This document shows positions 22,163 through 45,550 of a stretch of 64,000 nt of DNA, piece after piece. The stretch covers positions 6,833 through 70,832 of the forward strand of contig CAWCBB010000008.1 of the NCBI GenBank assembly GCA_963793695.1, given 5' to 3'. Under the pieces are notes generated by a model. It did not search any database, was not told where the DNA came from, and was given only the letters and a program-made list of their open reading frames with translations. How positions within the stretch are numbered: the first letter of the stretch is position 1; every line of letters starts with the position of its first letter. Source of the DNA: an uncultured Acidobacteriota bacterium (GTDB lineage Bacteria > Acidobacteriota > Thermoanaerobaculia > Gp7-AA8). A program made the translations under genes and the position numbers.

Positions 22163-22270
22163 GTCGAGGGGTCTCGGAGTCTCGGAGTCGGTGTCGCGCC
22201 CGCGCCCGCGCCCGGGCCCGGGCCCGGCCCGAGCCCGAGCCCGAGCCCGAGCCCGAGCCCGAGCCCGAGC
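22163..22270. repeat. family D heptamer/octamer array (GGGGTCTCGGAGTCTCGGAGTCGG) followed by a hexanucleotide SSR, (GCGCCC)3(GGGCCC)2(GAGCCC)7
   Basis: gtcgcgcccgcgcccgcgcccgggcccgggcccggcccgagcccgagcccgagcccgagcccgagcccgagcccgaagg, between the convergent gene ends. Confidence 0.75.
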
Positions 22271-22330
22271 CCGAAGGTTGGCTGCTCACAGATCTGGCAG
22301 CGAAGCAACCCTCCGTCGACTGCTCCCTGC

Positions 22331-23019
22331 CTACTCCCCCAGGATCGCGTCGGCGCCCGGCGCCTTGAGGTAAAGGCGCCCCACGGCGAGGTCGTCGCTC
22401 CGTACCCTCGCGCGCGGGCCGTGAAGCCCTTCACCCTCAGCAGCGCCACCTTCTTGTAGTGAATCGTGTTCAGCTCCACGTAGACGGGGGTTCCCGCGAA
22501 CCGGCTCACCATGGCGGCCGCCGGCTTCGAGATCGTTCCGGCGAACTCGAGCGCGAGCCGCTGGTACTGCGGGTTTTTCGGGATCGCCGTCGTCGTCCAA
22601 ACGTCCATCGACGACTCCGGCCCCAGCTGGATTCGGTAGCGGAGAGCTTCCAGCCCTCCCACCTTTCCTTTGACCGGCGCGGCGACGGGAAACTCCCCCA
22701 TGCCCGGCATCACTTCCCCCTCGGCGTGCGCGAGCGTGAGGAGCATCGACCGGATCTTCGGGAGCGCCACGTCCGCGTAGAGGCGCGAGAGCGGGCTCAG
22801 GACCGTCACGTGCGGGTCGCCGTTCCGGCTGAACGCGCGGAGGAGAGGGGCCTTCGCCGCGACGCCTCCGGGGTAGAGCGTGATCTCGACCGAGCCGAAT
22901 TTCGAAAGGAAAGGAAACGGGGCGGCGGGGTTCGCCTCGAGCTCGAGCCGGTAGCCGGCGGCCATGAGGGTCGATGGGAGGAGAAGGATCGCGAGGAAGG
23001 GGAGGATGACGCGGTTCAT
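22331..23019 (-). CDS. hypothetical secreted protein; one frameshift near nt 22400
   Basis: Signal peptide MNRVILPFLAILLLPSTLMAAG. There are about 200 aa of clean sequence, then the C-terminus continues in the other frame (DDLAVGRLYLKAPGADAILGE*). Confidence 0.6.
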
Positions 23020-23035
23020 TGTGGAAAGCATACAG

Positions 23036-23248
23036 CGTTCTCCGTTCTCCGTTCTCCGTTGTCCGTTCTCCGATCTCCGTTCGCCGTTCTCCGCGGCACC
23101 TCCCCGCGCCCGCGCCCGAGCCCGGATTCTCTTTCAGTCCGGACGAAACCGCGTCCGAGGTCGCAGTCCACACGATCTGCCGCGGAGAACGGAGAACGGA
23201 CAACGGAGAACGGAGAACGAAGAACGGGGAACGGAGAAACGAAGAACG
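23036..23248. repeat. heptamer array family C: (GTTCTCC)x8 ... 89-nt GC-hexamer spacer ... (GGAGAAC)x9
   Basis: cgttctccgttctccgttctccgttgtccgttctccgatctccgttcgccgttctccg at 23036-23093 and cggagaacggagaacggacaacggagaacggagaacgaagaacggggaacggagaaacgaagaacg at 23183-23248. The spacer contains ccccgcgcccgcgcccgagcccgg. Confidence 0.85.
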
Positions 23249-23338
23249 CCTTTCTCGCGGGTGGAACGTCAAAAGGGAAAACAGAAACGGCCGCGGCTCC
23301 TGTGAGCCGCGGCCGTTTCGTATCGGTTCCCGTGTTTC

Positions 23339-43300: not shown

Positions 43301-44581
43301 TTGAAGCGCTGGATCTGGATCGGAGCCGGGGTCGCGCTCGTCGCGATCATCGTGATCGCGAGCGTCGCGAGCGGCGGCGAGAAGGGGGAGAAGGTCTACG
43401 TCGAGCCCGTCGGCCGCCGCGACATCCAGGCGGTCGTCTCCGCTCCCGGCCAGATCGACCCCAAGGTCAAGGTCAACATCAGCGCCCACGTCATCGGGAA
43501 GATCGAGAAGCTCTATTTCGAAGAGGGGCAGACGGTCCGGCGGGGCGATCGGCTCGTCGATCTCGAGAAGATCGCATTCACCGCGGCGGCGGATCAGGCA
43601 GCCTCCCTCGTCGCGAACCGCCGGATCGAGGTCCGGAGGACGCGCAACAATCTCGAGAACGCGCAGCGCGTTCTGGTCAGGGCCGAGAGCCTGAGTCGCG
43701 AAGGCGTCCTCAACCAGGAGTTGTTGGACCGCTCACGCCTCGAGCACGACACGGCCCGCACCTCGCTCGCCTCTGCCGAGGAAGGCGTCCGCCAGGCGGA
43801 AGCGGCGCTGCGCCAGGCGAGAGAGGACCTGCAGCGGACCACGATCGTCGCTCCCATCAGCGGCCGGATCGTCCAGAAGAACGCGCAGGAGGGGGAAGTC
43901 GTCATCACCGGGACCATGAACAACCCCGGATCGGTGATCGCGATCCTCGCGGACCTCTCCGAGGTGCTCGTCGAAGCCGACGTCGGGGAGACCGAGGTCG
44001 TCAAGGTGCGCGTGGGCCAGTCGGCCGAGATCCGGGTCGATGCGATCCCCGACGCCGTCTTCAAGGGGAGCGTCGTGGAGATCGGCAGCTCGGCCTCGCA
44101 GCGCGCGGGCGTGAGCACGGGCATCCGGTACTTCAAGGTGAAGATCGCGATCATCGCGCCCGACGAGCGGCTCCGGCCGGGGATGACGGCCCAGGTCGAC
44201 ATCATCACGAGCGCGCTGCGGCAGGCGCTGTCGGTCCCCGTGCAGAGCGTCGTCGAGCGGACAGCCGAGGAGCTCGTCAAGGGTAGGAAGTCGCGCGTGA
44301 GCGGCCCTTCGGACGCGCTGAAGGACAAATTCGTTTTCGTCGTCCGGGACGGCGTCGCCGAGGCGGTGAAGGTCACGACCGGCATCAGCAACGCGACGCA
44401 CGTGGCGGTCCTCTCGGGCCTCAAAGGCGGCGAGAGCATCGTCACCGGTCCCTTCCGGACGCTCCGCAACCTGAAGAAGGGTGACAAGGTCCGAATCGAC
44501 ACCGGGGAAGAGAAGGAACGCCCAAAGGATGATGCGAAGGACGGGAACGACGAGAAGGGCGAGGACGAGAAGGGCGAATAG
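43301..44581 (+). CDS. efflux periplasmic adaptor (HlyD/MacA membrane-fusion protein)
   Basis: An N-terminal transmembrane helix, a coiled-coil hairpin, TTIVAPISGRIV, and a beta-barrel/MPD domain. Clean. Confidence 0.8.
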   Translation: MKRWIWIGAGVALVAIIVIASVASGGEKGEKVYVEPVGRRDIQAVVSAPGQIDPKVKVNISAHVIGKIEKLYFEEGQTVRRGDRLVDLEKIAFTAAADQAASLVANRRIEVRRTRNNLENAQRVLVRAESLSREGVLNQELLDRSRLEHDTARTSLASAEEGVRQAEAALRQAREDLQRTTIVAPISGRIVQKNAQEGEVVITGTMNNPGSVIAILADLSEVLVEADVGETEVVKVRVGQSAEIRVDAIPDAVFKGSVVEIGSSASQRAGVSTGIRYFKVKIAIIAPDERLRPGMTAQVDIITSALRQALSVPVQSVVERTAEELVKGRKSRVSGPSDALKDKFVFVVRDGVAEAVKVTTGISNATHVAVLSGLKGGESIVTGPFRTLRNLKKGDKVRIDTGEEKERPKDDAKDGNDEKGEDEKGE

Positions 44582-44590
44582 AGGCGTTTC

Positions 44591-44717
44591 CCGTTCTCCG
44601 TTCTCCGTTCTCCGGAAACCAAGGGCCTCTGGCGTGCGTACAGGAGAATGGACGAAAAGCCGGGCCCGGGCCCGGGCGCGGGTGGGGGCGGAGAACGAAG
44701 AACGGAGAACGAAGGAC
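44591..44717. repeat. heptamer array family C inverted pair (GTTCTCC)x3 ... (GGGCCC)n spacer ... (GAGAACG)x4
   Basis: ccgttctccgttctccgttctccgg, a spacer with gggcccgggcccgggcgcgggtggggg, then gcggagaacgaagaacggagaacgaaggac. It lies between the macA-like and macB-ATPase genes. Confidence 0.8.
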
Positions 44718-44734
44718 GCCTCTCCAGGAATGAC

Positions 44735-45430
44735 ATGACGGATCAAGCGAACACCAACGGCAAGCACCTGATCGAGATGCACGAGCTGGTCAGGGTGTAT
44801 GAAATGGGCGCGGAGAAGGTGTACGCGCTCCGCGGCGTGAATCTCACGGTCGAACACGCGGAGTACGTGGCGATCATGGGGCCGTCCGGGTCGGGGAAAT
44901 CGACGCTGATGAACATCATCGGCTGTCTCGACTCGCCGAGCTCGGGCCGGTACCTCCTCGACGGGACCTCCGTCGACACGATGAACGAGGACGAGCTCGC
45001 GGCGGTACGGAACAAGAAGATCGGCTTCGTCTTCCAGACCTTCAACCTCTTGGCGCGGACGACGGCGCTCCACAATGTCGAGCTCCCGCTCATTTACGCG
45101 CGCATTCCCCGCGCGGAGCGGCGCGCGCGCGCCGAGCAGGTGCTGGCCGAAGTCGGCCTCGCCGACCGGATGCATCACCAGCCCAACGAGCTCTCCGGCG
45201 GGCAGCGGCAGCGGGTCGCGATCGCGCGCGCCCTGGTGAACCGCCCCTCGCTGCTCCTGGCCGACGAGCCGACCGGAAATCTCGACTCGAAGACCGGCCG
45301 GGAGATCCTCGACCTGTTCCGCAACCTCGCCGACCGCGGCAACTCGATCATCCTGGTCACGCACGAGGAAGACGTCGCCGCCGAGGCGACGAGGATCATC
45401 CACATCCGCGACGGGATCATCGCGAACTGA
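44735..45430 (+). CDS. MacB/LolD-type ABC transporter ATP-binding protein
   Basis: [49 protein letters not shown]...[15 protein letters not shown]...[11 protein letters not shown]. Confidence 0.85.
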
Positions 45431-45550
45431 GGGTCTGGGAGTCTCGGCGTCTGGGGAGTCGCTTCGCCTATACCCGTGATTCATGTCTCTATGGCTCGAA
45501 CCGCTCAGGTGCAGACTCTGTATTGGCCGAGGCCTAGTCTCCTAGACGCC
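45430..45550. repeat. family D inverted pair (GGGTCTGGGAGTCTCGGCGTCTGGGGAGTC ... CTAGTCTCCTAGACGCCTAGACTTCCAGACGCG)
   Basis: Intercistronic between the macB ATPase stop and the permease start (45568). Confidence 0.65.

Follow-up and report, generated by a model that had tools for sequence, protein, structure and literature searches.

GAGTC-core tandem-repeat arrays at the mutS2 leader, the macB junction and a third intergenic site of a Thermoanaerobaculia genome: candidate members of a dispersed repeat family

We examined a stretch of 64,000 nucleotides (nt), here called the window, from an uncultured Acidobacteriota bacterium of the Thermoanaerobaculia (GenBank assembly GCA_963793695.1, contig CAWCBB010000008.1, positions 6,833 to 70,832 of the forward strand). 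The window is chromosomal, has a GC content of 67%, and contains housekeeping genes, among them dnaG, an rpoD-like sigma factor gene, murJ, nadA, efp, rpsU, udk, and tRNA-Leu. Our subject is a group of short tandem-repeat arrays, family D, which occurs at three local sites in the window: the leader of mutS2, the gap between the ATPase and permease genes of a macB operon, and an intergenic site at 22157-22192. A preliminary description had read these arrays as (GGGAGTC)n heptamers and had proposed mutS2 and the efflux pump as phase-variable contingency loci. We found that the arrays are real and lie at the positions first given but that they do not consist of one uniform GGGAGTC heptamer. At mutS2 the period is 7 apart from one 11-nt unit, and the other two sites have a period of 8 to 9 and the unit GTCTNGGR; Tandem Repeats Finder (TRF) reported a period of 8 or 16 there (GTCTCGGA, GCCTAGAC).

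The mutS2 gene lies on the minus strand (29315-31681) and encodes a protein of 788 amino acids (aa) with MutS_V and Smr domains (Pfam). A single-arm family D array occupies 31682-31729 on the minus strand (mRNA strand, TCAAGACTTTCGACTCGAGACTCCCGACAGACTCCCGACTCCCGACTC) and runs directly into the ATG (31681-31679). On the plus strand, 31682-31719 reads GAGTCGGGAGTCGGGAGTCTGTCGGGAGTCTCGAGTCG and adjoins CAT, the reverse complement of the mutS2 ATG. As had been reported, the mRNA reads ...GACTCCCGACTCCCGACTC-ATG and contains no GGAGG-like Shine-Dalgarno (SD) motif. TRF found 2.7 perfect GAGTCGG units (19 nt), after which come an 11-nt unit and degenerate copies. Five copies of GAGTC fall within 37 nt; this clustering is nonrandom, with clusters of at least three expected 0.075 times per shuffle. 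The 7-nt periodicity runs on into the first mutS2 codons (GACTCAT GACTGAT). A mis-called start had been raised as a possible explanation for this arrangement. We found that the ATG lies 5 codons ahead of the conserved LRSLEF motif, as in all orthologues, which excludes a mis-call. Coupling to an upstream open reading frame (ORF) through the ATGA that overlaps the mutS2 start was also rejected; the frame is open, but no start codon in it gives 20 aa or more.

Upstream of mutS2 on the same strand is rpsU (31894-32100), which encodes ribosomal protein S21 and whose orthologue is annotated PF01165. Its terminator hairpin (AACGGACCCC/GGGGTCCGTT, 31846-31871, minus strand) is followed by TTTGCTTTTG on the minus strand. 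Between this terminator and the array is a GTAGGGCCGC...GCGGCCCTAC palindrome (31751-31835, minus strand) with 31-nt arms that are 81% complementary. It resembles repetitive extragenic palindromic (REP) elements and their paired form (REPIN), and it is kept in the sister species. The sole sigma-70-like promoter match in the region, TTGACC-17-TAGAAT, agrees with the consensus at 10 of 12 positions and lies upstream of rpsU (32142-32170, minus strand). TTGACC and TAGAAT-like hexamers were also seen upstream of rpsU in four relatives (L001 to L004). In contrast, we found no promoter-like site in the 212-nt rpsU-mutS2 spacer. The array thus does not appear to make up the whole 5' leader of mutS2, contrary to what had been claimed, since the one consensus promoter found precedes rpsU. 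In L003, the rpsU terminator leads straight into the mutS2 ATG. This and the lack of a promoter in the spacer suggest that mutS2 is probably expressed by read-through from rpsU.

All of the MutS2 and MacB relatives come from Thermoanaerobaculia metagenome-assembled genomes. We compared the mutS2 start of the window with those of seven relatives (L001 to L004, L009, L010, and L018/L020; L005 was excluded). We found that the SD was absent in 8 of 8 starts, with or without an array. The preliminary description had tied the missing SD to the array; the relatives instead show that the SD-less mutS2 start is ancestral and independent of the array, since they lack the SD whether or not an array is present. 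In the closest relative, the conserved ...GTAGACTCCGATCCCGC is followed directly by the ATG, without an array. In L009 (91% MutS2 identity, with strains L018 to L020), the rpsU terminator, the GTAGGGCCGC...GCGGCCCTAC palindrome, and GTGTCGTAGACT are conserved and are followed by ...CCGATCCCGC-ATG. In the alignment with L009, the window has 48 extra nt immediately after the conserved block and immediately before the mutS2 ATG; these are the array. The mutS2 array is thus, by these alignments, a lineage-specific 48-nt insertion. L010 (88% MutS2 identity) ends in ...CACTCCCGC-ATG like L009 and carries a different array, (CTGCCTW)4, about 20 nt upstream. Other relatives have pairs in the rpsU-mutS2 spacer, (GAACGCA)5/(TGCGTTC)4 in L001 (77% MutS2 identity) and GTTGCTG/CAGCAAC in L004 (52%), and there is no array in the spacer of L002, L003, or L009. 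Over 5.7 kb around mutS2, which served as a control region, three sister-strain samples, the ones that also yielded the macB contigs L011 to L013 (see below), differed by 1 to 2 single-nucleotide polymorphisms and no indel, the array being absent there. In the centroid fold of the window leader, the array was unpaired and the upstream palindrome was very stable. We propose that the mutS2 array would be a recent single-arm expansion in a leader that already lacked an SD and that it may act as an unstructured, C/U-rich spacer. Its effect is most likely near-neutral.

At the second site, the macB-type ABC ATPase gene (44735-45430, plus strand; Pfam) has its start set by homology, which gives 231 aa as in the relatives, and its stop codon at 45428-45430. 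The MacB permease gene (MacB_PCD and FtsX domains; 45568-46794, plus strand) starts with an ATG and lacks an SD, as it does in 7 of 7 relatives compared. Since neither mutS2 nor the permease gene has an SD in any relative examined, the SD-less state is ancestral, and the SD-less starts predate the arrays. As first described, an inverted pair occupies the 137-nt gap between the two macB genes. The G-rich arm 1 (45428-45460, plus strand; TGA GGGTCTGG GAGTCTCG GCGTCTGGG GAGTC) begins within the ATPase stop codon. The C-rich arm 2 (45514-45568, plus strand; ...CCTAGTCTCCTAGACGCCTAGACTTCCAGACGCGC-A(TG); period 8/16) has the A of the permease ATG as its last paired base. The paired arms (45428-45455 and 45541-45568) are 28 nt each, 82% complementary, and 85 nt apart. 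Their units are imperfect, with a period of 8 to 9 nt (GTCTGGGA GTCTCGGC GTCTGGGGA) and not 7. The RNA fold of the gap had a predicted energy of -68.4 kcal/mol (z = -4.25). In the minimum free energy structure, the UG of the ATPase stop is base-paired to a CA whose A is the first base of the permease AUG.

We then compared this junction among relatives. Three near-identical contigs of the sister species, from three assemblies (L011 to L013), encode identical permeases that are 93% identical to that of the window. In each, the homologous position is taken by a pair whose unit is 9 nt long (GCGTCTNGN/AGACGCNCA). The three do not differ in arm 1, and arm 2, on the side of the permease ATG, contains 4 (L011), 2 (L012), or 5 (L013) copies of AGACGCCCA. 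Against L011, L013 shows a single mismatch and one gap of 9 nt over 7,515 nt, and L012 shows 26 mismatches and one gap of 18 nt over 8.2 kb. The unit-number difference in arm 2 is the sole indel among the three contigs over 7.5 to 8.2 kb. The k-mers given in the labels of these contigs exceed the arrays in length. We concluded that whole units are gained and lost between strains, and we infer replication slippage as the mutational mechanism.

More distant relatives fill the same gap with other sequences. L014 (81% permease identity) has a (GGGGCGA)n/(TCGCCCC)n pair at 4185-4372. In L015 (80%), nearly all of a 360-nt gap (4537-4900) consists of (GATGATT)n/(AATCATC)n interspersed with GAAAGGCATT. 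L016 (74%) has CCCCTCTCCC...GGGAGAGGGG palindromes without tandem units at 2785-3000, and in L017 (68%) the gap is only 18 nt. Folding of the macB gap covered the window and L012 to L015 but not L016. The predicted energies were -95.9 kcal/mol (z = -7.8) for L012, -105.4 kcal/mol (z = -7.7) for L013, -102.6 kcal/mol (z = -7.6) for L014, and -177 kcal/mol (z = -9.9) for L015. The folded stems start 0 to 6 nt past the stop codon and end 0 to 19 nt before the AUG. The stop codon itself is paired with bases just ahead of the AUG in the window and L015, and this is nearly so in L012 to L014. A hairpin is thus kept at the macB gap across relatives with 74 to 93% permease identity, and those at 80 to 93% use arrays of different units. 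Where an array pair is present (the window, L011 to L013, L014, and L015), its length and units differ and the pair type is preserved. Taken with the mutS2 comparisons, this shows that the elements are gained, lost, or swapped for other unit families over short evolutionary distances.

The predicted stem at the macB junction sequesters the downstream start and overlaps the end of the upstream ORF. This is the structural arrangement of translational coupling by RNA unfolding, an established model exemplified by rpmI-rplT with a spacing of +52 nt (PMC12548453). According to this model, the hairpin base would join the ATPase stop codon to the SD-less permease start, and the outer stem would be opened by a ribosome reaching the end of the ATPase gene, so that the permease AUG becomes accessible. 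RNase III would also be likely to cut so long a duplex. From the modeled structures, we regard coupling by RNA unfolding, RNase III processing, or both as possible at macB, but only tentatively so and at odds clearly short of even.

The unit-number differences also bear on the proposal that these are contingency loci, in which an anti-recombination protein and an efflux pump would have their expression switched or tuned, as a form of bet-hedging, when units slip in the mutS2 leader and in the macB gap. The part of that proposal that stood was the slippage-prone substrate. The orthologous macB arrays of near-identical strains are polymorphic in unit number (2, 4, or 5 units), and two related viral contigs that are 92% identical in the regions compared (L035, 4537-4600, and L039, 3771-3869) have 9 versus about 2.5 GACTCCC units. 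There is also precedent for tuning by heptamers. In Haemophilus influenzae, the (ATCTTTC)n array in the 5' untranslated region (UTR) of hmw1A contributes to a hairpin that is processed by RNase III, and heptamer number there tunes expression through the hairpin (PMC12721329). Like the macB arrays, that heptamer array forms one arm of a long hairpin and varies in unit number by slippage; it is transcribed as part of the UTR.

Phase variation itself is unlikely. The 2-unit and 5-unit macB alleles share one predicted outer stem around the stop and start, and the extra units of L013 are taken up by a register shift. None of the arrays is a long perfect tandem tract. The mutS2 array has only 2.7 perfect units, the macB arms of the window are imperfect 8- to 9-mers, and the sister-species arm has 2 to 5 perfect 9-mers. 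The hmw1A locus, unlike these, is a proven phase-variable adhesin locus; natural hmw tracts have at least 11 units, with expression inversely proportional to length, whereas the tracts compared here have 2.7 to 5 units and lie beside housekeeping or transport genes. The closest relative has no mutS2 array and is equally SD-less. Because the tract is noncoding, unit number has no effect on frame, and a 7- to 9-nt step in a UTR cannot shift the reading frame. The same class of array flanks housekeeping genes throughout the window, and among the window arrays we found no link to surface, host-interaction, or stress-diversification genes. We therefore consider it quite unlikely that mutS2 and the efflux pump are contingency loci.

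The third family D array (22157-22192, plus strand; GTCTAGGG GGTCGAGG GGTCTCGGA GTCTCGGA GTCGG) has a period of 8, and we found no inverted partner for it. As first noted, it adjoins a hexanucleotide simple sequence repeat (SSR), (GCCCGN)13, at 22198-22274 on the plus strand. Shorter GC-rich (GCCCGN)n SSRs lie within array elements elsewhere in the window, in the spacers of two family C pairs (23103-23124 and 44660-44682; see below). A long ORF (22156-23031) spans the array and the SSR. Its homologues are 226 to 245 aa long and align only to about residue 211. They end about 23 aa past the alignment, and the C terminus of the best match fits another frame, with a stop at 22331. The array and the SSR are therefore intergenic, between convergent genes. 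We rejected a coding status for 22157-22274, the long ORF being a frameshift artifact. The array lies just after a terminator at 22125-22152. At 22051-22152, a 12-codon ORF with its ATG at 22073 (MSDHKSKEGRSS) has a very strong SD (GGGGGAGGAGG) before it and the terminator hairpin (22125-22148 plus a T-run) directly after it. This ORF may encode a leader peptide or serve as an attenuator, or it may be there by chance.

Is family D a family at all? Within the window it is so only weakly. Exact GGGAGTC occurred 11 times against 18 expected, and the 13-mer core GAGTCTCGGAGTC, with up to 2 mismatches, occurred 5 times against 6.8 expected. Neither is enriched, and family D is therefore not high-copy inside the window. 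Outside it, in L021 (91% permease identity), the T2SSE-RecX gap contains a complete palindrome of family D, with the units GGAGTCTN and GACTCCC. Its predicted fold has an energy of -105.9 kcal/mol (z = -7.9) and a 5-nt loop, and its arm matches the macB arm of the window at about 25 of 28 positions, both sequences having been compared by eye. In the window, the T2SSE-RecX gap holds a family A pair instead. Since family D sits at macB in the window and at T2SSE-RecX in L021, slots can hold different families in different genomes.

We also found GACTCCCGACTCCCGAC in 25 viral contigs, of which the high-GC ones (IMG/VR) carry (GACTCCC)n arrays as singles and as pairs of the same polarity. One of them (L024, 886-1146) has a nested composite, (ATTGCCG)n(GGGAGTC)4...(CCCTACT)4(CGGCAAT)n. 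Another (L027) has a (GTCGAAA)4(GTCGGGA)2 array like the tail of the mutS2 array, and in a third (L036, 7000-7070) a GGGAAT-type arm forms a hairpin with a GACTCCC arm. A scan of the viral contigs for the 8-mer version of the arm gave no match. The palindrome in L021 and the high-GC viral arrays together indicate that family D is a dispersed family.

The preliminary description overlooked that family D is one of several array families that reside together in the window. Counting arrays of at least 2.6 units, we found 21 with a period of 7, compared with 1.3 in shuffles. The corresponding numbers were 1 observed and 0.3 expected for period 8 and 22 observed and 2.5 in shuffles for period 6. The heptamer arrays are mostly inverted pairs that fill intergenic gaps and fold as long hairpins. 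Family A pairs, (AAATGCA)n...(TGCATTT)n, lie at 14548-14678, 35098-35188, 40460-40582, and 48935-49033, and pairs of this type also occur in L011 (2649-2785) and L010 (2497-2520). Family B pairs, (ATTGCAG)n...(CTGCAAT)n, lie at 20027-20161 and 49544-49661. Family C pairs, (CGTTCTC)n...(GAGAACG)n, whose arm 2 can also be read as (GGAGAAC)n, lie at 23033-23226 and 44585-44711; further family C sites are at 16589, 18503, and 46822 in the window and at 880-1000 in L021. Single-arm arrays were found at 12446, 16589, 18503, 33009, and 46822. The X...rc(X) polarity is constant inside each family, the inter-arm spacers are unrelated among copies, and relatives have pairs of the same kind built from yet other units. 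The arrays adjoin genes of every kind: rpoD, tRNA-Leu, efp, udk, rpsU/mutS2, a GH-like gene, an OEP gene, and a squalene synthase gene.

Both arms of a pair can change together. The pair upstream of the OEP gene is GCAAAAT/ATTTTGC in the window and GCAGAAT/ATTCTGC in L011 to L013, so that both arms have switched. In the window copy at 40460, a rare G variant of arm 1 is in register with a C variant of arm 2. These concerted changes indicate that the complementarity of the arms is maintained, either by selection or by copying at the DNA level.

Several further observations concern individual arrays. The family A pairs border a GC-rich hairpin with A-run and T-run edges, with loops that differ between copies, and they look like bidirectional intrinsic terminators with array extensions. 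In the purine arm of family C, a GGAG lies 8 nt upstream of the ATG at 23031; the array itself therefore provides an SD-like motif there. A (GATCAAC)n array (33009-33035, mRNA strand) ends 2 nt before the ATG of the uridine kinase gene udk (33006), which lacks an SD. A GHL10-family gene has its ATG (20011) 15 nt from the end of a family B array (20027-20065), whose partner arm adjoins tRNA-Leu (20180). A separate palindrome family has a GTAGGGSCGC head, with 21 matches in the window (at most 1 mismatch) against 12.3 expected. It occurs as pairs (1908/1974, 31752/31825, and 46791/46857), as singles (12528 and 29309), and in L009 (510-600). The sister species retains the copy that lies in the mutS2 leader, and the copy at 46791-46866 has a (GAGAACG)3 array within its loop.

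The recurrence of unit families raises the possibility that the arrays are mobile or selfish palindromic elements, similar to MITEs (miniature inverted-repeat transposable elements) or REPINs, which a trans-acting enzyme copies into intergenic hairpins and terminators with only incidental effects on the neighbors. Unit families do recur across loci and genomes, with family D at macB in the window and at T2SSE-RecX in L021 and with families A and C in multiple copies in the window. Orthologous slots are filled, empty, or occupied by another family; the X...rc(X) polarity is fixed per family; and there is no sense-strand folding bias. In Geobacter metallireducens, insertion sequence elements lie at a fixed distance from class 1 sites of a comparable repeat (PMC2700814). 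Other features fit mobility poorly. Unlike the conserved interiors of MITEs, the loops and spacers between arms are unrelated among copies and among the orthologous macB elements, and the sites inspected by eye showed no target-site duplications or direct-repeat flanks. Single arms exist, and the mutS2 array looks like a local expansion beside a preexisting GACT seed. No transposase or REP-associated tyrosine transposase (RAYT) was found among the 20 window ORFs scanned. On balance we regard mobile elements as a doubtful explanation, even though the present data do not separate it from a structural role of the hairpins.

REP elements are abundant intergenic hairpins in intra-operon gaps and at 3' ends, and their slots are often strain-variable. 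Unlike the window arrays, REPs are single imperfect palindromes with a GTAG head that are mobilized by RAYTs. The arrays have no GTAG head and, as noted, no RAYT among the ORFs scanned. The head of the separate GTAGGGSCGC palindromes does recall that of REP and REPIN.

Our favored reading, a dispersed repeat family without switching, places these arrays close to repeats described in other phyla. In Xanthomonas (GGGAATC) and Nostoc (GGGGA(C/T)T), heptamers are overrepresented in intergenic regions, mostly between co-oriented ORFs near ORF ends (Rehm et al. 2015, PMC4692102). The Xanthomonas arrays occur as singles or as 70 to 75 convergent pairs per genome, and their length varies among species while the single or pair type is kept (PMC4692102). 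The arrays of the window are similar in having a G-rich unit that differs by one base, in residing in a high-GC host, and in being intergenic singles or convergent inverted pairs near ORF ends. Again as in Xanthomonas, intergenic 7-nt tandem repeats are overrepresented (21 versus 1.3), and repeat length differs among relatives while the pair type is preserved, here at the macB gap. The window differs in its unit (GGAGTC(N)), in its mixed periods of 7, 8, and 9 nt, in having too few G3 tracts, in the presence of several unrelated unit families of one architecture per genome, and in its phylum, Acidobacteriota.

For the Xanthomonas repeats, a regulatory role through G-quadruplexes (G4s) or i-motifs has been proposed, and in the window the G-rich strand is the template just upstream of mutS2. 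Besides the one-base difference in the unit, the placement fits what was reported there, a preference for the antisense strand within 50 bp upstream of an ORF, as singles or convergent pairs (PMC4692102), and L036 joins a GGGAAT-type arm to a GACTCCC arm. A G4 needs four G3 tracts, however, and we counted three at mutS2 (31687-31707), three in macB arm 1 (45431-45455), and two at 22157-22192. A canonical intramolecular G4 was therefore rejected at all three sites. The families AAATGCA, ATTGCAG, and CGTTCTC cannot form a G4 and yet share the architecture. A G4 or i-motif function is thus extremely improbable.

A further precedent is the paired tandem repeats of G. metallireducens, classes 1 to 3, described as "global regulator binding sites" (Aklujkar et al. 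2009, PMC2700814). They too consist of three to five tandem 7- to 9-nt units on opposite strands with variable spacing; here the spacing is 85 nt at macB and about 20 to 100 nt at other pairs. They too occur in intergenic and intra-operon gaps (there, proB-proA), with several classes per genome. Compared by consensus, class 2 (TCTCCGTS) is a rotation of the family C unit CGTTCTC, and class 1 (GTTGCTYN) resembles the GTTGCTG of L004. Family D, on the other hand, matches none of the three unit consensus sequences (GTTGCTYN, TCTCCGTS, and MTYCTGA), and no class with a GAGTC core was reported there. Binding of IHF/HU is the function proposed for them (PMC2700814). In marine Beggiatoaceae, TAACTGA direct repeats lie a few nt before starts that mostly lack a canonical SD, including those of essential genes (MacGregor 2015, PMC4679880). 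The window arrays likewise end within a few nt of SD-less starts (mutS2, permease, and udk). The Beggiatoaceae differ in having one dominant unit, nearly always in direct repeats (with a single inverted case), and a low-GC host, and the translational role of TAACTGA is likewise hypothesized (PMC4679880).

Both systems point to iterated protein-binding sites as an alternative, either for a nucleoid-associated or global regulator on DNA or for an RNA-binding factor near starts (S1, Csp, or CsrA-like). Protein binding was put forward for the G. metallireducens pairs and also for the TAACTGA repeats beside start codons, and arrays of the window end 0 to 15 nt from the SD-less starts of mutS2, the permease gene, udk (33006), and the GH-like gene (20011). 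Against this, the unit sequences are wholly replaced at orthologous sites, which one conserved binding protein does not easily explain. At least four unrelated unit families coexist, and no candidate protein was identified. We consider this alternative very unlikely.

Two further comparisons are more general. The short tandemly repeated repetitive sequences of cyanobacteria are tandem heptamers of unknown function, three such heptanucleotides being cited for Calothrix, and, unlike the window arrays, they are not reported as regular inverted pairs. Mrazek et al. reportedly found that, among long repeats, heptanucleotides form the most abundant category in the majority of prokaryotic genomes, and they suggested polymerase slippage as the basis. 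We concluded that family D is an example of a known but poorly understood kind of repeat.

Some properties of the sequence and of our methods define how these results are to be read. Frameshifts break several essential genes of the window: an acyl-CoA dehydrogenase gene (about 20344-21921), the gene for a conserved secreted protein of about 232 aa (22331-23031), the rpoD-like sigma factor gene (about 23016-24929, at least two breaks), nadA (15516-16127), and the T2SSE ATPase gene (47675-48903). They are most likely indel errors of assembly, and repeat-unit lengths in the window are therefore possibly off by 1 nt. Exact-protein look-ups with S21 and MutS2 gave no second genome of the window organism, and a metagenome scan with MutS2 gave only relatives of 29 to 45% identity. 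At gathering thresholds, Rfam matched only tRNA-Leu in the window and nothing in the mutS2 leader or the macB gap. ARAGORN placed a "tRNA-???" with a 4-base anticodon within the coding sequence of dnaG (26072-26165); the call has no Rfam support and is probably a false positive. Our statements on the SD rest on starts inspected one by one, because a crude GC-position gene caller missed too many genes for a window-wide census.

All of these data taken together are consistent with a reading in which a dispersed family of 7- to 9-nt tandem repeats is represented locally by the partly degenerate copies of family D, with no on/off switch at any of the three sites. We give this reading as a whole a probability of about 0.55. 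The elements, with the core GAGTC/GTCT (GACTC on the other strand), would be common in Thermoanaerobaculia and present also in other high-GC contigs, and they would fill intergenic slots as single arrays or as inverted X...rc(X) pairs that form long hairpins.

Several points weigh against this reading. Every functional step in it is inferred. The differences in copy number were seen in metagenome assemblies of short reads, and related samples may underlie some of these; the window assembly itself contains indel errors. In one screen, structure just downstream of the stop codon correlated negatively with coupling (PMC12548453). The stop-to-start geometry at macB could be a trivial outcome of the insertion of a palindrome into an ancestrally short gap, such as the 18-nt gap of L017. 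Finally, when we compared sense and antisense fold energies and G-U counts in 22 pairs, we found no consistent preference for the sense strand. Without such a signature of selection at the RNA level, a DNA-level or selfish explanation fits these pairs equally well.

Intergenic heptamer arrays as such were already known from G. metallireducens (2009) and from Xanthomonas and Beggiatoaceae (2015), where function was only hypothesized. What is new here is a further phylum, in which the arrays are unusually dense and diverse, evidence for the gain and loss of units at the level of strains, and a macB junction hairpin that is kept in place at 74 to 93% permease identity while its sequence is replaced, in contrast to the 18-nt gap of the relative at 68%. 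For annotation, the lesson is that an array abutting an SD-less start here indicates neither a mis-called start nor a phase-variable gene. A broader and in our view unlikely idea is that the tandem-unit hairpins of Thermoanaerobaculia are an evolvable posttranscriptional device. Such a hairpin would bridge a gap of more than 100 nt so that an SD-less cistron is translated only with the upstream one, and an RNase III cut would perhaps leave an unstructured, C-rich leader like that of mutS2. Register shifts would let the device tolerate slippage, slippage could tune it, and unit families could be swapped while the structure is kept. The macB junction may serve as a model slot for repeats of this kind, whether they are selfish DNA, elements for RNA processing or coupling, or protein-binding sites.

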